DNA from: a virus
UHGV virus genome: UHGV-0168749
Strand: one strand, 5' to 3'
DNA: 12,524 nucleotides
The notes below the pieces were generated by a model. The model did no database searches, was not told the DNA's origin, and saw only the letters and a program-made list of their open reading frames with translations. The stretch's first letter is position 1; every line of letters starts with the position of its first letter. The translations under genes were made by a program, and so were the position numbers. This document shows, in pieces, positions 30 through 12,524 of this stretch.

Positions 30-31
30 CG

Positions 32-3000
32 TCAGAACAGTATGCAACGTACGATAACAAAGGCGGTTATACGTACAACACTACAAAACGCCGTTTTGCC
101 GTTACGTACAAAACCACGACGTTAAATGACTACTCCCTGTCGATGAAATACCGTATTCCTGGTATTTTCCCGAACATGGGAAGCATTAACCCAAATGAAC
201 AAATCGATTGGATGTTGTGCTACGCGAATGGCGGTGCAAGTATCCTTCGTCTTCAATTAAAGCAGCGTAAAATCTCTTTGCGCCTGACCGTAGCGTTAGG
301 AAGCGGCTCAACCGATTACGACTATACGCTAATCAACGGACTGACCGACAGCGAATTGAAAGGTGAGTTAACGTTTAGTGTTGTTCGTCAGCCTGGTAAC
401 GGTGTGTATGTTATCGAGGTGACGACTAACAAACAGACGATGGACTACACGTTCAACGTTGATAACCCACCATCCGAATTCTCAGCAGGTTATAGCAAAA
501 CAGATGTTGCGAAATGGTTGAAATATAAAACCAACGTTAATCTAAACTGGTGGGCGGCTGAAAACGATTATGCACAATTCCTTGCGTTACCTGGTGCGCC
601 AGACGCCGACGTAAGCAATGACGTTTATCAGCTGATTGTCAAATACCATCAGTTGGTGGAACAGCTTTACCGCAACGCACCAGCTCACGAGCACGTTACC
701 CGTAAAGATAACCCACACGTCGATACGTGGGGACCGATTCGTGCGTTAGAGTTAAACGGTATCGCGTCAGATGCTGCTTTGGCTTACGGGAAAACGAAAC
801 AACAGTTAACGGATTACGTTAACAGTAAATACCCGACGCAGGCAACACTGACAGCGCAGAATAAACTGCTACGCACCGCAGCTAACAAAACGGTTGACGG
901 AACTATCAGAACACTGCCAGGCTTTACGTCCTTTACGACGGAAGTTGATCCGGTGTCGATGTCTAAGTACGTGAACCCTTATTTTAGCGAAAGCTATGTT
1001 AGCAATGGTTACACGTATCATGGCGCACTTCGTTATACGGGAACGAAGAATGGATTTGGTACTTATTTTAATGGAGTACCTGCCAACCTGCAAGATATTG
1101 ACTTCATTGTCACCGGACGTAAAACAGCGTCAGGTAATGAAGCAGTCGGTATGGTTGGTTTACGCTTCTATGAAAATCCTGGTAGTAACTCTGGCAAATT
1201 CATTCAACTTACCGGTGAAGTTCTGTCAGGTCGAGTCAGTATCGGTTTACAACTGAACGGTTATGCTAATCCGCAGCCGGAAGTCCAATATGTTTCTCAA
1301 ATCGCCGATCCTGCAATACCTGACGATGATTTTACGTTACGTTTCCAATTAAAACGTACGGGGAACGTATTTGATATCGTTGTTACCGTGAATGGTAAGA
1401 CGTACAGCGCTCGTGTCAACTTCGTTAACATGGATGCTGCGCTAGAAGCGTTAGAGAACCAACATCACTTTAAAACGTTGATTAACAACGTTGCTGATAG
1501 TGTCAGCATTATCTCGCAAAACAAAGGTAACACGGTTACCATTAAGAAAGCGCCGGATGTTGTTGACGAGACCCGTTTAGGTGCTCAGTTTGCCGTTGAC
1601 CCGAAATCCATTAAGTTTATTGGCCAAGGTTCAACCGAAGTTAATGCAGGGAATAACCCCGTAACTTTCCAGGCAGGGACTAATCAGCTGGTATTGTACG
1701 CTGACGATCGTGGCTTGCAGTGGCGTGGTAAGAAACTTTTAGACCCCACCACAGTAGGGCCTTACCTACCAGGTAATACCGCGGGTGGAACAGGATTATT
1801 CTACGCAAACTCGACAGCAACGGTAACCATTACAGGTAACGGAATAAAAGCGTCACCGTTTGTGGCAACGTTTGTCCTCCCTACCGCAACGGATACGACG
1901 TCCTTAGCCGGATGGCAGTTAACCGATGAGTTCGGTACTGCGGAAAATCTGGCAGCGACGCCTGCGTTGATTACAAAACTCGATGCTGAGTTTACGGGTA
2001 AATTGGTCGCGGTAAAATCGTACATTAACGACATGCCGTTAACCAGCTCTATTACCATCGACAAAATCACCTTTAACCTAGGTAACGTTGCAAACACACC
2101 TGACGTCGATTTACCTATTTCTGTTGCACAACAAACAGAGTTGGATAAATATTCACCGAAGGTTCACCGCCACCCGTCAACAGCGTTTGGAGTGGAAAAC
2201 GCAACAACGGATAAACGCGGGTTAATTAAATTCGGATTAGCCGTCGATGATGCAACGCTGGCTTTAGACGCTAGTGTGGTGATGGATCAGACAGCTCGAA
2301 TTGAGAAGCTGGAAGCAACAGTAGGTAACGTAGATTCGGGTGCCCGAATTGACATCATCCGTTACGGTGAAACTGGGAACGACTTAATCGAAGTTACGGT
2401 AAAAGACAAGATACTGGTTACGTTACCCGCCACAACGTATTTCATTGGTGGGGAAACGTATCAAGTGCCGTTAATGACAGTAAACACTGCTGAGCGCTTT
2501 CCAAAACTGAATACGGAAATTGTTGCTGGGGTGTTTGTTGATATTGTCGATAACCGGGCGACTTATGTTATTCACGATAGTTACAGTCAAGCCGAAACGG
2601 ATACCATGACCCGTGTGGGGATGATTGGCGTCAACGATATCTCAGAAGTGTACTTAACCGAGTTGCGTAACGTGACCCGTTTAGGTGATTTCCGGGAATT
2701 GTCAGAACATATTGCTAACGACAATGCGCATATTCAGAGAAGTGCGCCACGTGCAGCTCTAGGTTTGCGCAATTTAACAGTGGGTGCGCCCTGCTGGGCT
2801 TCAGGCTTACAAGCAGTAACACGTGGTGAGGCTGATTGGCGATTTGCGATGGGGAATACGTATAAAGCACTCGACGGCGTAAAATACGATTCCTTAGCTT
2901 CGAAGTGGATATTTGATCCAAAGGGAGTTAGTGATAATGTTCATGGATTTATTCACAATCTTTTCCCGCTGTTCTCGAACGCAGGTGTTCGTGTAACTTG

Positions 3001-3787
3001 GGAAACGGAGAGTAACGCAAAAACGGGCACAGTGCTTGAAACGATTTTAGGTTGTTGGCGGAATAATGCCAATGAGTTTGTTCGCTTGTCTCTTTTAGTG
3101 ACAAGGGGCTACCGCTTAACTGACAGTAAGGGCGAATATTGTTACGCAGGTTTCGGGTTAAACTTCGCTAATGGGAAATCGGTTGTTCTTGGTTTTACAC
3201 CAACGAAGCGTGTTACACCTGCCCCTTGGAGTACATTACAACCCGATATCACATTTACCCACAGACGCGGCGCGAACAACGATGTGACGTTTAATGCGAC
3301 GTTAACACTAGCAGGAACGGTTTATACCATCGTTGTGTATTTGTCAGATGTAGATAAATACGTAAGCTGCACCGCAGCGGGCGGAACAACTCAGAAAATT
3401 TCGTTAACTGATCGTCTAGGTGAGTTAGATATTTCACCCATTGTTAACGATCCTTATACCCCTATCTATTACGGTTTAGGGGGACTTTATGACGACGAGG
3501 TACGCGCCAACCTCCGTACCACTGCTGATAGCATAACAGCAAATAAATCGTACGGAACGCTATTGGATTATATCGCTAACTATTCTGCATTAAACCGCGC
3601 ACGCCTCATTGAGACAGCTGGCCCAAGCTCAGATCCTGAGACGCTAAACGCGCTGGTAGCAAAAGAGTTTGATGATAATTTAGCCGATTATAACGCGTTA
3701 CCGATCCCTCCTTATCTGAACAAGGAGCGTGTCATGTCGTTCTTGGGTGAAAACAATAAACTCAACGCGGTGATTATTCGCGATTAA
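32..3787 (+). CDS. Large phage tail-fibre-like structural protein, probably 5'-partial (the ORF track starts it at the internal Met at 143)
   Basis: The reading frame is open from the first native base after the adapter (the only upstream in-frame stop, TAA at 20-22, lies inside the adapter). No Shine-Dalgarno precedes the ATG at 143 (upstream is ctactccctgtcg). Stop TAA at 3785-3787. Composition is T/N/G/V/Y-rich and it contains the box DLPISVAQQTELDKYSPKVHRHP...ATTDKRGLIKFG (nt ~2102-2238) resembling the conserved tail-fibre K-P-x-S...H-x-H motif. The product call is by motif recall, not a search. Confidence 0.7.
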   Translation, partial: SEQYATYDNKGGYTYNTTKRRFAVTYKTTTLNDYSLSMKYRIPGIFPNMGSINPNEQIDWMLCYANGGASILRLQLKQRKISLRLTVALGSGSTDYDYTLINGLTDSELKGELTFSVVRQPGNGVYVIEVTTNKQTMDYTFNVDNPPSEFSAGYSKTDVAKWLKYKTNVNLNWWAAENDYAQFLALPGAPDADVSNDVYQLIVKYHQLVEQLYRNAPAHEHVTRKDNPHVDTWGPIRALELNGIASDAALAYGKTKQQLTDYVNSKYPTQATLTAQNKLLRTAANKTVDGTIRTLPGFTSFTTEVDPVSMSKYVNPYFSESYVSNGYTYHGALRYTGTKNGFGTYFNGVPANLQDIDFIVTGRKTASGNEAVGMVGLRFYENPGSNSGKFIQLTGEVLSGRVSIGLQLNGYANPQPEVQYVSQIADPAIPDDDFTLRFQLKRTGNVFDIVVTVNGKTYSARVNFVNMDAALEALENQHHFKTLINNVADSVSIISQNKGNTVTIKKAPDVVDETRLGAQFAVDPKSIKFIGQGSTEVNAGNNPVTFQAGTNQLVLYADDRGLQWRGKKLLDPTTVGPYLPGNTAGGTGLFYANSTATVTITGNGIKASPFVATFVLPTATDTTSLAGWQLTDEFGTAENLAATPALITKLDAEFTGKLVAVKSYINDMPLTSSITIDKITFNLGNVANTPDVDLPISVAQQTELDKYSPKVHRHPSTAFGVENATTDKRGLIKFGLAVDDATLALDASVVMDQTARIEKLEATVGNVDSGARIDIIRYGETGNDLIEVTVKDKILVTLPATTYFIGGETYQVPLMTVNTAERFPKLNTEIVAGVFVDIVDNRATYVIHDSYSQAETDTMTRVGMIGVNDISEVYLTELRNVTRLGDFRELSEHIANDNAHIQRSAPRAALGLRNLTVGAPCWASGLQAVTRGEADWRFAMGNTYKALDGVKYDSLASKWIFDPKGVSDNVHGFIHNLFPLFSNAGVRVTWETESNAKTGTVLETILGCWRNNANEFVRLSLLVTRGYRLTDSKGEYCYAGFGLNFANGKSVVLGFTPTKRVTPAPWSTLQPDITFTHRRGANNDVTFNATLTLAGTVYTIVVYLSDVDKYVSCTAAGGTTQKISLTDRLGELDISPIVNDPYTPIYYGLGGLYDDEVRANLRTTADSITANKSYGTLLDYIANYSALNRARLIETAGPSSDPETLNALVAKEFDDNLADYNALPIPPYLNKERVMSFLGENNKLNAVIIRD

Positions 3788-3791
3788 GGAG
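3786..3791 (+). promoter_or_regulatory. Shine-Dalgarno (AAGGAG) for ORF2, overlapping the ORF1 stop codon
   Basis: Sequence gatTAAGGAGaattttttgATG: the ORF1 TAA (3785-3787) overlaps AAGGAG (3786-3791); TTG at 3798 and ATG at 3801 follow at 6 and 9 nt spacing. Confidence 0.75.
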
Positions 3792-3797
3792 AATTTT

Positions 3798-6700
3798 TTG
3801 ATGAAAGCGTATCCTTACGATCCTCGGGGGACGAAAGCCGAGAATCACTTCTTAGAGGAGCGTATCATCGGGTCAGAAAACAACAACGATCGGGTGGTGA
3901 TTTTGGATCATCGCCCGTTCTTTGAAAATCTGGTCGTTAAGCAGCCGGGTTCAACTACCCCACTGAGCCGTGGGGTAGATTACGAACTGCAATATCAGCT
4001 GACGGAACTGGATGACTCGGTAGCAGCCAACGTGTATTGTGGGGTACACCTTATCAACCCATCCATCAAAGGTTTAGTTACTTTTGAAGGACAAATGCTC
4101 GGTGGAACGTTTTACGATCCGTTTGTAGAAATTCTGGATGAGCTTGTAAAACATCTCAATAACCCGACTAGTGCGGATTGGTTGTTATTAGAAGGTCGTC
4201 CGTCGCTTTATCCAGCAACACCTGCTGCAACGTCTTGGGCAGATTTGCTGAATAAAAAATATCTTGCGTCTGCGGTTCATGATATCGAATTAAAAACCGA
4301 TGATGCAAACCAACTGATTAAAGATAAACTGGCCGAGGTTAAAGCACTCGTTGTTGCTCTGGGTAAAGAAATTCAAGCATTTAATTACCCAGCACATATC
4401 GCGGCAAAGAATCCTCATGAAACAACCGTAGCACAAATCGAAGCTCATCCGGTGAATCTCAAAACGCCGGATACCTTTATGGCTTACGGTTTACGTCTGA
4501 AAGCGTTAACGGAAGAACTAAAAGCATTCCGTTTACCACAATCGGTAGTTGACACCTATATTTCTCATTGGATTTCTGATGAGGTCTATGGGAATTTCAA
4601 CTGTACGGTGTCAGGAAACCGTGCACAATTCAGTTCTAAAAATGGTGAATCTGAAATCATTTTTGCGAACGATGGTTTTACGTTGAAGTCAAACGGTTCA
4701 GTTGTGTTGGCGGTCGGGCACTTGGAAGGAACAGGTGCGGGTCGTTACATACAGTGGCGTGCAGGTAAGAACACGTTGCGTATTGAATCAACAGGCGATG
4801 CCTTAGGGATGAATAAACTCACCTTAAACGGCAACCCGTTGCTTACAACGACTGCACTAATGGAATACCAACAAGACCCTGACGAAGGGACAGGTGGTAA
4901 TGACCCTGATGACACTAAAGTGTATATCGAGGGTCGCAACGGAATTAGCTTTACGGGTAAAGGTTCACGCGCTGACCCTATCGTAGGGGTTATCGACCCT
5001 CAAAAAGCGACTCTGACTGAAAAAGGCGTCGCTAAACTGAAAACCGGTAAAGGAACGGAAACAACGGGCGTTGCAGCAACACCGGGGTCACTGACACCGT
5101 ACTCAACGGACTTGTCCGGGTATGTGCCGAAAACGACGCTGCTAAACGGTAAGGCGATGAACGACGGTTCTCGCCAGATTACCAAAGCAGAGTTAGGATT
5201 GGAACATGCTGACAATACCGCCGATGTTGATAAACCGCTGTCCTCGGCTCTAAGTACGGCAGTTGAAGGACTTGCGGAAAAGAACCACCATCACGAGTGG
5301 TCAGAATTAGGCATTTATAAGGCTTCTCAATCCATTTACGGTATAGGTCGTTATGCGACTAACCAAAATGGCTTAGTCGAGGGACGGGCTGTAGTGCCTA
5401 ATATTCTCAAAGAACTTTCTGCAAGGCTTGAAGTTGTTGCCGCAGCGATTGCAAATGCGAAAGAAGGTACGGTAACAGATTTTGCTGCGGTACAAGGTGC
5501 GCAGTGGCGGTTTAATAGTCAAGGTACTGCTTTAACCGTACAGGATCTGAAAGTCTTTTATTTGTTTGATGGTAACAAAGACGAAGCTACCCTGACCGGT
5601 GCAATTGATCTTCAGACAACGCCAATGTTCAACTGGTTTTCGCCAAATAACCAGCTTGAAACTACCTGGCCGGAAGCAAAAGTTAGCAAAGGAACAGGAA
5701 TTACTTGGGACGGTATTGATGAACCACCGTTAATGGGCTATCACTCTGTGCCTGTTGGAAAGACAGCAACACAAATGGGTGATCAGTCTGTAATTACTGT
5801 TCTTGCTAAAGCTCGGGTCAAAGCGTACCAGTCTAAGCTATGGGTTTATGCTGCCGGTGGTGGCCCCGTAACCGTGTACATTAACGGTGTGCAAGTTGCC
5901 TCCGGTGAATCGCCATTATTAACTGTTTACGAAACTTCACCAAACGTCGAGAACTATGTTGTTGCAATAAAAGCGGAATGTAGCGACACGGCAAAATCAG
6001 CTGCGGTGCAGTTTGAGATATATGACGGTGATTACCCTGTATATTTCAGTGGTCCCGAAACACACGTAGAGTTGTTAGCCGATTTCGTCACAACACATGT
6101 TGGGATTCGTCATTATCTTTACGTTAACATGCTCACAGGTTCTCTGTATTCTCGTGCTGAGCCGATCGAATCAAACCAGGTTGATCCTGAGCGCGGTTTT
6201 ATCGGATACGTAGATGTTTACGCAGGCGAAAATTACGCGAATAAGACGGTAACTTTCGACACCACTTTCGACTTTGGTACAAGTGCAGAAATTGGCAACC
6301 ATGTGACCACGCGAAACGCCCACGGGTTAAAAGTGGTCGACTGGTCGCTGACAGATAACCCCAGATTACCGTTATTGAACCGCGCTATTCCCGAACCACG
6401 TGCGTTGGTTTATCGTAAGATGCTAACGGCGGGAAGTGGCGGGACTGCTGTAAGCTTGAGTCGCGGTTTGCTTACTTATTCGCATGGGCTAAATGTTAAA
6501 ACTGCTTTACAGCTAATTTTCTCGACCGAAGGTGCAACGCCGTATTGTTGGTTTACACCATTCAACCCTAAAGAAAATAGTGCCCCCACATTCGAAGGGT
6601 CGTTTGTTTTTGATGTTGATGATGTTGGCGGGACAAAAGCACTCACAGCAGCTCCAGATCTTATACTCTGTGCTAGTTCACAAGGTAGTTCTGTAGGACG

Positions 6701-7988
6701 TCGATACGTTCGTTTTAATCTTACGGATAAGACCTGCAAAGTGGGTGTTGGTACGGTGCGTACTAATGAGACGTGGTACAAAACGTTTGAAACAAACGAT
6801 GGGGTGATGTTGATGGAAACAGCAAATGAGACCGCTGTTTCTGCAACTACCAAAGACGTGTTATTTAATGGCGATGAAACTAATCCAGCAATTCTTGACC
6901 TTTTAGGTTGGGGTGTAAGCAAGGATAAGATTTCTCCTGTTCACGCCCCAAGGGGAATGATACGTTACCGTTATAATGTTCAAACTCGTGTCTTACGATT
7001 AGCACTTTCTTTCTCGCAGTTTAACACAACAGCGGTTAAACAACGCCAAGTAGAGTTCCAACTTCCGTTTGATTTGGTAGATTATTTTGCTGGCGATGGC
7101 GTTGGGCTGGCGTTTAGTGAACTCAGCGAGAAGTGTCGTTTGACGATTAGCCATGGTTTAATAGACCCGGTTACATCTAATATTGACATTGATAAGTATC
7201 ATTACTTGCGTGGCTTGTTTGAATCGTACGTAGATAGTTCTATCGGTCAGCTTTCGGATGCTCGTGATGCCGATTATGCCCAGACCGCAATAGACCCCGC
7301 ATCGTACGAGATTAAATCTGAGTTCCGTTTTACCGAAGCAATAGGTTTACCTCTGGGACAAGGTGTTGCTTCTTTGTCGCATGAAGGTCAACTACCTGCG
7401 CAGTTCTACGATCGTAAGTTAGCTCGCGGTGCTTTGGTTTCTCAGAACTCTACGTGGAATAACGCGTGGAGTACCACGTCGCCTGCATCAGATAAACATC
7501 GTGGAAATTTGATCTTGCGATTCGCACAGGGCGTTAGTAAAGCACATTATCGCATCGCGCGTGTGTCGGGAACGATTAAAAGCAACTGGCCAGGGAAAGT
7601 GATTATCGGTGATGCACAGAAAGATGCTTTCTTATCTGCAACTGACATCGTCGAATTTGCTTTGTCGACATCTTCTGATGTGGGTAAAGCAATAAGCTTA
7701 ACTCCCGTGGATCTACGGGCAGGCCAAGACCTTTATATCGTCCTTGAGTTGCCGGGCGACAACCCAGAGGGGTATGAGTTGAACTTCAGCTGCAATTTAG
7801 AAATCTTTGATGAAACCAATACTCGTCAAGATCAACTGAACGTGCAAAGTTTTGAAGTTCGTTCCGGCGATGAACAAGTGATGATAACAAAGCGTAATCC
7901 GTACCATATCACGAGCAAAGCGTGGAAATGGATTTTAGCTGTACTGAAACGTGAACTTAACGGTAAACAGTTAGGGGATCGCACTTAG
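3798..7988 (+). CDS. Large phage tail-fibre-like protein (~1396 aa) with a canonical fibre repeat and a His-triplet box; start may be the ATG at 3801 rather than TTG at 3798
   Basis: Uninterrupted ORF with a strong RBS and TAG stop at 7986-7988. It contains QKATLTEKGVAKLKTGKGTETTGVAATPGSL (nt ~5001-5090), closely matching the tail-fibre repeat type A-T-x-x-x-K-G-V-x-x-L...A-A-T-P known from lambda Stf and T4 gp12/gp34, followed by LGLEHADNTADVDKPLSSALSTAVEGLAEKNHHHEW (nt ~5196-5300). The C-terminal ~700 aa look like a different, globular, Cys-containing module. Confidence 0.8.
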   Translation: MMKAYPYDPRGTKAENHFLEERIIGSENNNDRVVILDHRPFFENLVVKQPGSTTPLSRGVDYELQYQLTELDDSVAANVYCGVHLINPSIKGLVTFEGQMLGGTFYDPFVEILDELVKHLNNPTSADWLLLEGRPSLYPATPAATSWADLLNKKYLASAVHDIELKTDDANQLIKDKLAEVKALVVALGKEIQAFNYPAHIAAKNPHETTVAQIEAHPVNLKTPDTFMAYGLRLKALTEELKAFRLPQSVVDTYISHWISDEVYGNFNCTVSGNRAQFSSKNGESEIIFANDGFTLKSNGSVVLAVGHLEGTGAGRYIQWRAGKNTLRIESTGDALGMNKLTLNGNPLLTTTALMEYQQDPDEGTGGNDPDDTKVYIEGRNGISFTGKGSRADPIVGVIDPQKATLTEKGVAKLKTGKGTETTGVAATPGSLTPYSTDLSGYVPKTTLLNGKAMNDGSRQITKAELGLEHADNTADVDKPLSSALSTAVEGLAEKNHHHEWSELGIYKASQSIYGIGRYATNQNGLVEGRAVVPNILKELSARLEVVAAAIANAKEGTVTDFAAVQGAQWRFNSQGTALTVQDLKVFYLFDGNKDEATLTGAIDLQTTPMFNWFSPNNQLETTWPEAKVSKGTGITWDGIDEPPLMGYHSVPVGKTATQMGDQSVITVLAKARVKAYQSKLWVYAAGGGPVTVYINGVQVASGESPLLTVYETSPNVENYVVAIKAECSDTAKSAAVQFEIYDGDYPVYFSGPETHVELLADFVTTHVGIRHYLYVNMLTGSLYSRAEPIESNQVDPERGFIGYVDVYAGENYANKTVTFDTTFDFGTSAEIGNHVTTRNAHGLKVVDWSLTDNPRLPLLNRAIPEPRALVYRKMLTAGSGGTAVSLSRGLLTYSHGLNVKTALQLIFSTEGATPYCWFTPFNPKENSAPTFEGSFVFDVDDVGGTKALTAAPDLILCASSQGSSVGRRYVRFNLTDKTCKVGVGTVRTNETWYKTFETNDGVMLMETANETAVSATTKDVLFNGDETNPAILDLLGWGVSKDKISPVHAPRGMIRYRYNVQTRVLRLALSFSQFNTTAVKQRQVEFQLPFDLVDYFAGDGVGLAFSELSEKCRLTISHGLIDPVTSNIDIDKYHYLRGLFESYVDSSIGQLSDARDADYAQTAIDPASYEIKSEFRFTEAIGLPLGQGVASLSHEGQLPAQFYDRKLARGALVSQNSTWNNAWSTTSPASDKHRGNLILRFAQGVSKAHYRIARVSGTIKSNWPGKVIIGDAQKDAFLSATDIVEFALSTSSDVGKAISLTPVDLRAGQDLYIVLELPGDNPEGYELNFSCNLEIFDETNTRQDQLNVQSFEVRSGDEQVMITKRNPYHITSKAWKWILAVLKRELNGKQLGDRT

Positions 7989-8025
7989 GACAGACTGCCT
8001 GCGGGCAGTAATGTGTCCGTAGGTA

Positions 8026-8064
8026 ACCCCTCCCTGTAAAAAGGGAGGGGTATCCATTTTATTT
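8026..8064 (+). terminator. Putative rho-independent terminator between ORF2 and ORF3
   Basis: Perfect inverted repeat aCCCCTCCCT (8026-8035) / AGGGAGGGGt (8042-8051) with a 6-nt loop GTAAAA, followed by a T-rich tract (atccaTTTTATTT, to 8064). The U-tract is offset ~5 nt from the stem, so strength is uncertain. A smaller hairpin ACTGCC-tgcg-GGCAGT lies at 7994-8009, just after the ORF2 stop. Confidence 0.5.
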
Positions 8065-8070
8065 AAAAGT

Positions 8071-8075
8071 AGGAG
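8071..8075 (+). promoter_or_regulatory. Shine-Dalgarno (AGGAG) for ORF3
   Basis: gtAGGAGtctttacgATG: AGGAG at 8071-8075, 8 nt upstream of the ATG at 8084. Confidence 0.75.
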
Positions 8076-8083
8076 TCTTTACG

Positions 8084-11000
8084 ATGCCGAGAGAAGACGC
8101 GGCGCTGTTTAACGGTACGTTAAATACGTCAACGTACCCTAACCGATTTAACGTGGTCATCCCGCCGGAAGGCCCCTTTTATCGTATCGGATTAAAGCTC
8201 ACTGTTGCTGACGAGTCCGCCGCCGGTGGCCGTCGTACCTTAATAGAAGGTCTGGACTACTATTTAGGTTATTACTTTAAAGAGCTCGCTGAGGCAGAAC
8301 AAGACCAAATTTACGGCGGGTTCATGTTACTGACTGCCACTGAGGTGGAATACGAAATTCTGGGTGTAGCGCGCCAGTACCGTATCCCACAATCGGAAAT
8401 TGGCAAGTATCTAGTTCGTACCGATTTAAAAGATCCGCGTAACGTGGATTGGTCCGAATTAATGGCGTATGCTCCTGTCATACAGCCTATTGACCCGCCT
8501 GCTAACTTAGAAGAAGCCCTACTCAGGGACGAAGTAGTAAAAGCATTAGATGATATTCGTAAAAAGATTATCAAACGTTCCACTGAACTGGATGCTGCTT
8601 TTAGCGAAGTTACGAATCTGATTTACGAAAACGGTAAGAAGGTTTTTGACGAAGAGCTTTATCAGCACCATTTGAACCCTAATGTTCACAACTACACGAC
8701 TGAAGACATTGGTGCACTGCCTGTGTTGGGGCGTGCCGTAGATGCGACAAAAGCTTTCAACAGAACGTTAGATGAACTCGCAACGTTGATGGGTTCTGCG
8801 GGAATTGAGCAGTCGGACGTAGACCAGTTGATGGGCCGTACACTCGGCACGGTTTATGGTCGTTGGCGTGCTTCAAACGGTAAAGAACTGGCGTTCAAAA
8901 CCGCAGGCGGTCATGTAATCAGTATCCGAAATGATAAGTGGTTGATTACGTCACCACAACCATTAGTGATTAAAGCTGACCAGGACAACAATGAATCAGG
9001 CTTAGCCGTTGAGTTCAGCGCTGGGTTGAACACCCTTTGGGTACACTCTGGCTCCGAGCAAGATGTTTTAGCGCCAGTGTATAACTCCGTGTATCTGGTT
9101 ACACCAGACATGGTGAACATGTACTTAACATCGGTGACGTTGCTGGAAGCTAATGCGTACTTCTCGTCTTCAGACACAGTGAAAGCGTACGGTACATCGA
9201 AACAATCCAACCCATTGACGTTAAATGCAAATATCCCTACGGCGTCTGAGTCGGTTTACGGATTGTTCTCTATTACGAATATCGCAACATCAGCTGCGTT
9301 GGGTACAGCAATATCCCAAAAAGCCGTTACTGAATTAAAAGACCGGTTAGACTTGTACGTCGATGATGATTACACCATTAACGGTAAAGGATTTGTTAAG
9401 ACCGGTGAGAACATGGTATTGACGTTAACGAAAACGGATTTCGGCATCGATAAAATGGACAATACCAGTCCGGCTAACAAACCAGTAACAAAAGCACTGA
9501 CAAATGTTTTAAAGAACAAAGCATTGTCTAACCACACCCACGTGTTTGGCGATTTGGATAATGTACCGATCGGTAGTGCGACGGTAGACGGCTTATTACA
9601 GTTGTGGGATGCTATAGACACTACTAATGATAAAGCGGTCACTTCGCGTCAAGGGTGGTTATTTGCGAAAGAGATCAAGAAAGTTACTGACAAACTGAAC
9701 ACTATTTTACCGGCTTGGACCGTAGGTGGTGCGAAGTTTGGTAACAAAAACTTTCTACCAATTCCGGCACTTGGTAACTATTCAGGCTTTACAAAGAACC
9801 AGTCTTACCAAAAAGGGGTTGTTGGTTATCAGCAAGGGAAGGTCTACTCGCTACGTAATGCTTCTAATGGCGTGCCGGGTACAGAAGCTATTTATTACGG
9901 TTATGCGGATATCAACTCGTCAAATGCGTTTGAAAATCCACAACAGACCTCGGTGAAATACCATCCTGTTGGACTGAGTAAGTATCCTGGTGTAACTTTA
10001 AAAGCGATTTTGATTGGTGGTCAGGAAGCGATCATTTGCCTGGGCTCCGACAATAACCGGTATTTGGTGCTGTTTAACGGTTCGATGGACCACGCCAAAC
10101 ACACCGTGGTTTGTCGTGTGACGATGCCTGTCTATCGTAACGGTAACCCTAGCGGAACCGTTGAACAAACTTGGAATCCGTGGCCAGAAGCCGACGATGT
10201 TGTGCTGGTTGATGATTACGTCTATCTTCTCCGTTCTACGGTGAATAACTCTGCTTATGCAGTGGCGGCTTGGCGTTTGCGTAAAGCTGATTTGTATACC
10301 AGCACCACGTTAGAATTTGAACGCGTAACATTAACAGGCGAAATGGGTCAATACGGAGATAACCTCTGTTTACGAATCGGTCAAAAAACTGAGGAGTCTC
10401 AGTCTGGGCAGTTCTTTACGTATTTTACACCAGAAGCACGCGCTAAATGGACTAACGGACATAACTTTGTTCACGGGCCGGAATGCAACCATGCTTGCGC
10501 GGTGCGTGACAGCGTGATCCGCGTGAACCATATGCCCACGGTATGGTTTGCGGCGGCTGATGGCTCACAAATTAACTTTCGTCAATGGGCAACAAGTTTT
10601 ACGATCGATACGTTGACGGGCAAAGTTACGTTAGAAGGTGCCGAACGCTTCCCCATCAAGGCTGATGCTACTACACTCTCGTTCGCGGACGGTTCAACTG
10701 TAGAAACTAGTCGCAAGTGGGGTGGTGGTCAGGCAAACAATCGTTGTTTTGCAACGTTTGCAAAACCTAACGGTACGGGAATGATGCTTTCCTGCTGGCA
10801 AGTTAACGACGCAGACCAAATGCCGAACGTTTCTATTAAAGGAACGCAAGGCAAAGAGCTTTTCGATTATCTGCGTTACGATAACCCGAACAATACTTCA
10901 GGTGAAGGGACTTTTACATGGGATAAAGGACGCGGTTCTATTTATACCATCGGTCTTTCTCACCCTGTCGGTATTGGAGGCTCGAACAAAGTCTGGTTGT

Positions 11001-12475
11001 CTAATCCACGTAACCGTTACACAATCGAAGTTGAGGTTGACCCGAACACGCCGTACAATGTACCTGGTTACAGCGGATACGGTCCAAATAACAACCGTCG
11101 CGAGGTTGATCCTACACTTTACGAGCAGTTGAGCTGTATGGCTGCGTGTATGACGCCAGAGGAGCGCCACGGCCAACTTAACGGTTGGTATCTAACAAAA
11201 GCAGAGACTTTCCCATACCGGAATATCTACGGTAATTTTGCGTTGTCTTCAGAACGCTTGACGTTAGAAGAAGCTGATCGCCAGAAGATGATTCGAATGA
11301 TTGTCGATGGTGCGCCGTCAGGCGAAGCTAATGGCTATGCGAATGAACGTATTAGCGCAGCACACCAAACAGGCAATGCGTTATTTGCTCTTTGGATGTT
11401 GGGTATTAACACCGTGTGCGAGTTTGACTTATTACAAGTTTCGTGCATGAAAACCTTAGATAATGGGCGTCGTATTCTCGATATCTATTACTTCATGGTG
11501 AGCCCATCTAAAGAGAATGGTTATCTACGTTTTAACTCCGCAACCTTTAAGCTGGTCGACTGGTTCTTAGATAAGGACTACGGTTTAAGTTATCAGTCCT
11601 TGAATGAAGAAGCGGGTAATAAAACACGACGTGTGGGTCAGCCTATCTTTGCTTCTGCGGATGGTGTTAACTTCGGTATTTGGTTACCGTATACGTTGAC
11701 GATTCGGAATATCGGTGATTTGAACGCATTAGGCTACGCCGCGAAATATACTTACGACCCTGGGTCGGGTTGGACTCGTGTTCCTGGTAAGTCTCAGTTG
11801 CGTCAGATGGCTCCTGCCCATAACCCAGAATCCGGGTGTTACATGGGCGCGGGCAGTTGGGATAAGATGGCATTGATTTATTCCAAGGCTGACCGTGTAT
11901 TCTGCTCGGGTAATGCGTACACTGCCGCAGAGTTTGTTAACGACACAACATTCTCAACAGGCGGTCAAGCGGTCATTATTTCCGGTGTGGAAACGGCGGA
12001 AGGTTGGATTCTGTATTTAACGGAAGAAGTTAAATTGGATTTTGGTAGCAGTAGTTATACGCTTCCAACGTGGTCGGTAGATTTAAGTAATCAATTTCCA
12101 TCTAACCACGCCAATCAAACCTTCTACGTCCACGGCGAAGTTGTAGGCTCAACTGCACAGTATCAGATAGGTCTGGAGCAGCTTCCTGATAATGCGACTC
12201 GGCTGTTCGTTGGAACAGTCACAACGGACAGCAAACGTATCGTTGATATCAATATCGATAAGGTGAAACGTCTTGGTCGTGTTCGTGAACTGGAAGAACA
12301 TGCCGCTGTGGTTGATCAACACGACGTAGCGGCGGCGTTTGATCGAAAAACAGGACCACTACAGACGCTGGTTAACCAACCGTTGAAAGCTCCTGCGGCA
12401 TCTACGGTAAAAGGTTCTGGTTATGTTGATGCACAGAAGTGGAATTCACTTTCTGCGCTGGCATATAAGCCAGGT
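8084..12475 (+). CDS. Large phage tail-fibre-like protein, 3'-partial (at least 1464 native residues; reading frame runs into the adapter)
   Basis: ORF with a good RBS. It contains the box MDNTSPANKPVTKALTNVLKNKALSNHTHVFGD followed by GSATVDGLLQLWDAIDTTNDKAVTSRQGW (nt ~9455-9675), matching the tail-fibre motifs D-N-T-S-x-x-x-K-P-V-S/T...H-x-H and A-S/T-x-x-x-G-x-x-Q-L...A-A/V-T. No stop occurs before the adapter at 12476; the last ~16 residues of the 6-frame track translation (LSLIHISEPTRP...) are adapter-encoded. The C-terminal half is unusually Cys-rich. Confidence 0.8.
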
Positions 12476-12524
12476 CTGTCTCTTATACACATCTCCGAGC
12501 CCACGAGACCCTAAGACATCTCGT
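12476..12524. other. Illumina Nextera read-2 adapter (reverse complement) plus 8-nt index and start of the P7-side sequence, non-biological
   Basis: 12476-12509 read CTGTCTCTTATACACATCTCCGAGCCCACGAGAC (reverse complement of the Nextera read-2 adapter), followed by the 8-nt index CCTAAGAC and ATCTCGT, the start of the sequence that follows the index in Nextera libraries. Confidence 0.9.

Follow-up and report, generated by a model that had tools for sequence, protein, structure and literature searches.

What does the C-terminal part of a large phage fibre gene do when its sequence carries no recognisable fibre signature? The question is raised by ORF2, a gene of 1395 codons in the virus genome sequence UHGV-0168749, a stretch of 12,524 nucleotides that is referred to here as the window. 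The first-pass annotation of this DNA had set apart positions 5850 to 7988, downstream of a fibre repeat and an HHH box, as a region that may be a receptor-binding or enzymatic module. The analysis described here favours the former. The C-terminal region of ORF2 is rather likely to be a non-enzymatic receptor-recognition module composed of lectin-like beta-sandwiches, and probably one directed at glycans. Orthology, synteny, domain layout, fold class, the gradient of conservation and the exchange of alleles in one domain (D2) were computed here. The location of the orthologue from Salmonella jumbo phage SPN3US in the virion and tail, and the architecture of the fibre base of Pseudomonas phage phiKZ, were taken from the literature. 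The binding itself, its ligand and the domain that makes contact are what we infer.

To which proteins is ORF2 related? ORF2 spans the profile of phrog_8078, the family of gp169-type virion structural proteins, from one end to the other (E = 0, 1674 bits; residues 2-1393 against positions 1-1389 of 1392), and in tblastn searches 55 phage records cover at least 80% of it. In each of 55 jumbo-phage genomes, one gene can be aligned with 99-100% of ORF2, at 27-52% identity. The orthologues belong to the genera Seoulvirus (SPN3US, the SPFM phages, EC001 and Proteus phage 7), Erskinevirus (Asesino and phiEaH2), Machinavirus, Wellingtonvirus and Derbicusvirus. The gp169-type proteins of Seoulvirus, Erskinevirus, Machinavirus and Wellingtonvirus are 40-50% identical to ORF2 over 99-100% of the length. 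The whole C-terminal region is present in at least 53 phage genomes at 25-40% identity, and its retention over the full length in 53 phage records shows that it is real coding sequence. The gene order in the window is that of gp170-gp169-gp168 in SPN3US. The run of paralogues, including a reverse-strand gp130-like gene of ~1260 nucleotides, is ordered alike in a second metagenome contig (L013), SPN3US, pEa_SNUABM_29 and phiKZ. Judged by its sequence, ORF2 is a full-length orthologue of SPN3US gp169 within the gp131-like family of Chimalliviridae-type jumbo phages. It adds a new and rather divergent member to a protein family already known. At the DNA level, megablast against 50,697 phage genomes returned no match to ORF2; the window is a new lineage at that level, and its relatives were found by protein-level searches only.

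The closest named system is SPN3US gp169 (ACQ60_gp097, YP_009153463), which has been grouped with gp168 and gp170 as "paralog family C". It has 1376 residues compared with 1395 in ORF2, shares 46.5% identity overall, and is alike in gene order and domain layout. Unlike this overall match, the last ~500 residues of ORF2 are only 17-34% identical to gp169. The earlier statement that function was undetermined from sequence overstated the isolation of ORF2, given this full-length orthologue. Full-length homology to a characterised fibre of known fold was looked for and not found, since gp169 has neither a solved fold nor an assigned function.

Where in the virion is such a protein located? Mass spectrometry has shown gp168, gp169 and gp170 of SPN3US to be virion proteins that are absent or depleted in tailless particles, and their relation to gp131 has made them candidates for baseplate or tail-fibre proteins (PMC5694885; PMC10052503). 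In the structural atlas of phiKZ (2026), the gp131-like N-terminal domains of several paralogues build a hetero-hexameric fibre base, and the C-terminal domain of gp131 sits at the distal end of this base (PMC13250141). As cited in the atlas, that C-terminal domain is a solved seven-bladed propeller (Sycheva et al. 2012, cited in PMC13250141). Residues 4-138 of ORF2 are similar to the N-terminus of phiKZ gp131 (PHIKZ131; 25.4% identity, E 1e-4, tblastn). The window further shares with phiKZ gp131 and its paralogues gp133-135 a run of paralogues and a genomic position after a reverse-strand gp130-like gene. By analogy, ORF2 is presumably attached in the mode of gp131. The seven-bladed beta-propeller of gp131 has no counterpart in the models of the ORF2 C-terminal region.

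The kinship of ORF2 with its neighbours is confined to the N-terminal part. BLASTP aligned ORF2 with ORF3 over residues 28-503 (E 2e-20) and with ORF1 over residues 382-561 (E 5e-10); the paralogy ends at residue ~560, and no C-terminal similarity of ORF2 to ORF1 or ORF3 was found. The families phrog_7449, phrog_7557 and phrog_2163 also match the N-terminal part of ORF2 only. How far does the C-terminal region extend beyond this family? An exhaustive profile search with residues 859-1395 against 1.84 billion representative proteins gave 16 matches. The significant single-stretch matches were orthologues of ~1330-1390 residues that carry the sequence at the same C-terminal position, and no remote homologue beyond the ORF2 family was found. 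This part of the protein, which holds domains D2 and D3, is therefore restricted to one phage lineage.

Domain-boundary prediction and a fold search, which the first-pass annotation had proposed, were run and predict three all-beta domains. Two AlphaFold2 models were built with homologues gathered by two profile searches. Model 1 covers residues 520-1395 (29-sequence alignment, mean pLDDT 74.9, pTM 0.71) and model 2 covers residues 859-1395 (13 sequences, pLDDT 77.9, pTM 0.82). ORF2 and its parts are as follows.

3801-7988, plus strand: ORF2, 1395 residues, orthologue of SPN3US gp169 and putative gp131-like tail-fibre/baseplate protein (phrog_8078 match, tblastn, synteny).
3801-5357, plus strand: N-terminal part (attachment/stalk, fibre repeat, HHH box at 5286-5294), common to ORF1, ORF3 and phiKZ gp131 and characteristic of the family.
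Residues ~533-551, plus strand: a helix, weakly predicted by AlphaFold2.
5481-6275 (residues 561-825), plus strand: D1, an all-beta jelly roll of ~18 strands (AlphaFold2).
6279-6374 (residues 827-858), plus strand: helical linker with invariant E830, H834 and H841 (H-x6-H; 13-phage alignment), modelled at pLDDT below 50 (model residues 308-339).
6393-7232 (residues 865-1144), plus strand: D2, a beta-sandwich with the conserved motifs PxxWFTPxNPKE, RYRY and YLRSLFESY (AlphaFold2).
6633-6950 (residues ~945-1050), plus strand: the patch of D2 that varies most and is rich in indels (highest polymorphism in the set of 105 close homologues; allele identity).
7263-7985 (residues 1155-1389, region to 1395), plus strand: D3, the least conserved beta domain (AlphaFold2 models; conservation).

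Within the variable patch of D2, residues 987-1001 form a loop of low confidence (pLDDT below 50; model-2 residues 129-143). D3 is closed by a conserved alpha-helix at residues 1366-1385 (NPxHxT..W.W....E), in which P1367, W1375 and E1385 are invariant in the 13-phage alignment. Position 5850, where the C-terminal region had been said to begin, corresponds to residue 684 and does not serve as a boundary; it falls in the middle of D1 and cuts the domain in two. The natural boundaries lie at about nucleotide 5481 (start of D1), 6279-6374 (linker), 6393 (start of D2) and 7263 (start of D3).

The sequence of this region had been described as free of any recognisable fibre signature or repeat, and this description was borne out. 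The ~830 residues after the HHH box (residues 496-498, nucleotide 5286) have no sequence match in Pfam, NCBIfam or the PDB. For ORF2 as a whole, no Pfam family was found at E<=1, NCBIfam gave nothing significant, and phmmer and profile searches gave no match to PDB sequences. Profile-profile comparison of D1, D2 and D3 gave hhalign probabilities of 0.2-2.6%; internal duplication of the three domains was ruled out at these values (<=2.6%). The mixed composition with scattered cysteine and aromatic residues was likewise confirmed, with 6 Cys (0.8%) and 10% W+Y+F in 712 residues. The peptides quoted at the time are present, with CWFTPFNPKE... at nucleotide 6546 (residue 916), RYRYNVQTRV... at 6963 (residue 1055) and YHITSKAW... 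at 7902 (residue 1368).

Which folds do these domains resemble? D1 resembles galactose-binding-domain-like and sugar-binding accessory domains and the non-catalytic beta-sandwiches of GH78 rhamnosidases and of GH2/GH35 glycosidases. The fold matches of D2 and D3 are concanavalin-A-like lectins (fungal and legume), galectins, SPRY domains and CBM66; the lectin-type matches come from D2-D3 jointly and are not attributable to one of the two. The matches are at 4-14% identity, which is similarity of fold class and no evidence of homology. Both the tentative assignment of D1 as a sugar-binding jelly roll and that of D2/D3 to the concanavalin A-like lectin/glucanase class are based on fold similarity; sequence searches gave no significant family match. 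In the viral fold database BFVD, the sole global match was the orthologue from Erwinia phage Kwan (E 3e-60, TMq 0.60). All further matches had TMq <=0.16, and the named ones were for the most part tail proteins bearing F5/8-C, PA14, LamG or lectin domains. The general beta-sandwich class is also shared with the distal tail protein of phage Chi (8vjh_B), the CBM2 of the evolved Dit of Lactobacillus phage J-1 (5ly8) and the receptor-binding domain of mycobacteriophage TM4 gp23 (9n6a). The mode that ORF2 would share with these domains is that of a non-catalytic module for binding the host surface, appended to a tail protein. In the literature searched, no earlier description of the C-terminal domain assignment was found; the assignment fits the expectation for phage receptor-binding proteins.

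The conservation of the domains declines along the chain. The mean identity of ORF2 to its more distant orthologues is 46% in D1, 29% in D2 and 23% in D3 (with a minimum of 11% in D3), and D1 and the core motifs of D2 are strongly conserved across genera. In a set of 105 close homologues with mutual identities of 92.5-100%, polymorphism is highest at residues 945-994 and 1284-1331. Within the Seoulvirus SPN3US species, two alleles of residues 850-1200 are 70% identical while the rest of the protein is 98% identical; at residues 950-1050 the two alleles are 48-56% identical. Such divergent alleles in a 98%-identical background indicate recombinational exchange of D2. A clean association of the alleles with host was considered and is unsupported, as the alleles mix across isolation hosts: contigs of Salmonella isolates can also carry the EC001-type allele, and a phage isolated on Proteus has the SPN3US-type one.

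ORF2 is ~80% identical to uncharacterised relatives in isolate assemblies. More than 100 such homologues (P0021-P0125; 1392-1394 residues) match it over the full length. Most of them come from isolate assemblies that bear the labels Salmonella enterica (many serovars) or Shigella flexneri, on contigs that reach ~220-225 kb. Such a distribution suggests frequent co-sequencing of an SPN3US-like jumbo phage with isolates; a carrier state or pseudolysogeny is possible. The fall of these homologues into more than 100 separate 90%-identity clusters raised the idea of hypervariability or a diversity-generating mechanism. It was rejected, since the members are 92.5-100% mutually identical and the variation is dispersed, with only moderate enrichment at the C-terminus.

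How might the C-terminal region work? Of the two modules first proposed, receptor binding is favoured because the predicted folds are of lectin and carbohydrate-binding type, conservation falls towards the C-terminus and D2 acts as an exchangeable cassette. The enzymatic option is unsupported because the glycosidase matches fall on accessory sugar-binding domains only. In an SPN3US-like jumbo phage of the nucleus-forming kind, the C-terminal region would be the distal, host-facing part of one baseplate-attached fibre subunit. The first ~520 residues, which are gp131-like and common to the neighbouring paralogues, would anchor ORF2 in the fibre base. Residues 561-1395 would form a chain of three self-contained beta-sandwiches of lectin or carbohydrate-binding-module type. 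This chain most likely binds a surface glycan or another envelope structure of an enterobacterial host without degrading it; no published receptor of SPN3US was found in the literature searched. Specificity may be carried by D2, through its exchangeable variable patch (residues ~945-1050), and by the poorly conserved D3. D1 and the linker may act as a conserved spacer or a secondary binding unit.

Could the region instead have a structural or assembly role? On this account, D1-D3 make protein-protein contacts in the peripheral network of baseplate and fibres, as a spacer, a strut or a platform on which paralogues dock, and do not touch the host. The strong retention of D1 and of the D2 core motifs across genera would suit such contacts. 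SPRY and ConA-like folds are also common as protein-protein interaction modules, and much of the peripheral baseplates of phiKZ and Goslar is still unassigned. A further point in its favour comes from the genus Machinavirus. Machina, isolated on Erwinia, and pSal-SNUABM-04, isolated on Salmonella, have ORF2 orthologues that are 97% identical throughout, and it is the neighbouring ORF3 orthologue that holds a divergent cassette. The decay of conservation towards the C-terminus, the indel-rich patch and the exchange of D2 alleles are typical of exposed surfaces selected by the host and would be unusual for buried contacts. The analogy with phiKZ gp131, in which the C-terminal part is distal to the fibre base, also speaks against it. 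A purely structural role, the main rival to receptor recognition, is considered unlikely.

The divergent cassette lies at residues ~550-1300 of the ORF3 orthologue, where Machina (L015 10115-15106) and pSal-SNUABM-04 (L016 10115-15136) share 36-50% identity. On the sequences compared, it looks like a module swap that coincides with a different isolation host. The orthologue compared corresponds to ORF3 of the window at 8084-12475. The ORF1 and ORF2 orthologues of the two phages, and the gene downstream of the ORF3 orthologue, are 97-99% identical. Exchangeable modules seem to occur at more than one place in the fibre complex, and a difference in host seems not always to be reflected in ORF2. 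A more elaborate proposal is that D2-D3 (residues 859-1395) is a receptor module found in a single lineage of nucleus-forming Enterobacterales jumbo phages, with the recombining patch (residues ~945-1050) as its specificity cassette, which together with the ORF3 module would form a combinatorial multi-receptor fibre. At present this proposal is distinctly doubtful.

An enzyme is very unlikely. Here, the ConA-like jelly roll with its invariant Arg/Tyr/Glu residues, a fold also used by GH16 glucanases and PL7-type lyases, would degrade surface polysaccharide. Among the fold matches, lectins, SPRY domains and non-catalytic glycosidase domains rank best, and no catalytic-domain family was matched in Pfam or NCBIfam. 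The AlphaFold2 models of residues 520-1395 predict no catalytic domain, beta-helix, TIM-barrel, propeller or needle; a right-handed parallel beta-helix or other catalytic fold, as in tailspike depolymerases, was thus not found in the C-terminal region. That D2 is a cryptic ConA-fold enzyme degrading glycans is less likely than the combinatorial multi-receptor fibre proposed above.

That the C-terminal end serves as an intramolecular chaperone, or as some other element of assembly, and is cleaved after folding is extremely improbable. The last ~30 residues do form a conserved helix (with the invariant P1367, W1375 and E1385) although the rest of D3 is poorly conserved, but this single helix is short and predicted within the beta domain. 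No Peptidase_S74 domain with its autocleavage site or other chaperone domain was matched in ORF2. For SPN3US gp169, the full calculated mass (149 kDa) is given with no processing entry, unlike the cleaved head proteins tabulated alongside it (PMC5694885). The Pfam search thus agreed with the first impression that the C-terminus does not resemble a chaperone end. The likeness of ORF2 to trimeric chaperone fibres (Peptidase_S74) and to the HxH needle fibres (T4 gp37/gp12) consists of the upstream HHH box and fibre repeats, at residues ~440-500. Unlike those fibres, the C-terminal region has no S74 domain, extended triple beta-helix, needle or repeated HxH array.

The remaining features of the window are its two other genes and the intergenic hairpins.

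143-3787, plus strand: ORF1, its 5' end cut off by the contig edge.
8084-12514, plus strand: ORF3, its 3' end cut off by the contig edge.
7997-8064, plus strand: two hairpins and a T-run between ORF2 and ORF3, outside the protein (10-phage alignment).

The content of the window is three consecutive large paralogous genes on the plus strand, and ORF2 alone is complete. It is a single open frame from TTG at 3798 or ATG at 3801 through the stop at 7988. The Met at 3801, 13 nucleotides beyond the ORF1 stop codon, is likely the start because all orthologues of ORF2 begin at the corresponding Met. The window is itself an ENA metagenome contig (ERZ1026973 NODE_388). Its positions 30-12475 are 100% identical to the second metagenome contig L013 and are the phage DNA proper. 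Positions 1-29 and 12476-12524 are Nextera transposase adapter, with CGGCAGCGTCAGATGTGTATAAGAGACAG at the start and CTGTCTCTTATACACATCTCCGAGCCCACGAGAC... at the end. Adapter occupies the first 29 and last 49 bases of the contig, and the 5' part of ORF1 and the 3' part of ORF3 are therefore missing. The ATG of ORF1 at 143 is an internal Met, and the ORF1 protein has 1440 residues in L013; the terminal residues of ORF3, "...LSLIHISEPTRP*", are translated adapter. An antisense ORF inside D2 (6476-6922, minus strand, 148 codons) was rejected as spurious, as the orthologous loci give only short antisense echoes of the conserved sense motif.

The first intergenic hairpin has its stem at ~7997-8024. 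The second, GC-rich and terminator-like, has its stem at 8026-8051; TTTTATTT comes next, and the AGGAG ribosome-binding site of ORF3 lies shortly downstream. An alignment of 10 phages from several genera shows both hairpins retained, with compensatory base changes, and neither has a match in Rfam. A conserved terminator/attenuator is one possible role, an RNA-stability element between two fibre genes another.

The H-x6-H motif of the ORF2 linker recurs in all three paralogues, each time within a linker-like segment. In ORF2 orthologues it is invariant both at H199/H206 (residues 199-206) and at H834/H841 with E830 (6288-6323), and in the paralogues it reads "...SEHIANDNAH..." (ORF1) and "...EEHAAVVDQH..." (ORF3). 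In the fibre, it may bind metal or form part of the neck.

What does this mean for jumbo phages? Host recognition by phages of the phiKZ/SPN3US type is still poorly understood, and in the latest structures of phiKZ (PMC13250141) and Goslar the peripheral baseplate and fibres are unresolved or merely docked. The C-terminal region of ORF2 reveals no new type of system and is a useful annotation. The domain map of the gp169-type proteins consists of three lectin-like domains, a variable patch in D2, two D2 alleles that occur naturally and, in the ORF3 paralogue, a further module of its own that can be swapped. From this map, constructs can be designed to assay binding and to engineer the host range of the jumbo phages of Salmonella, E. 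coli and Erwinia that serve in biocontrol.

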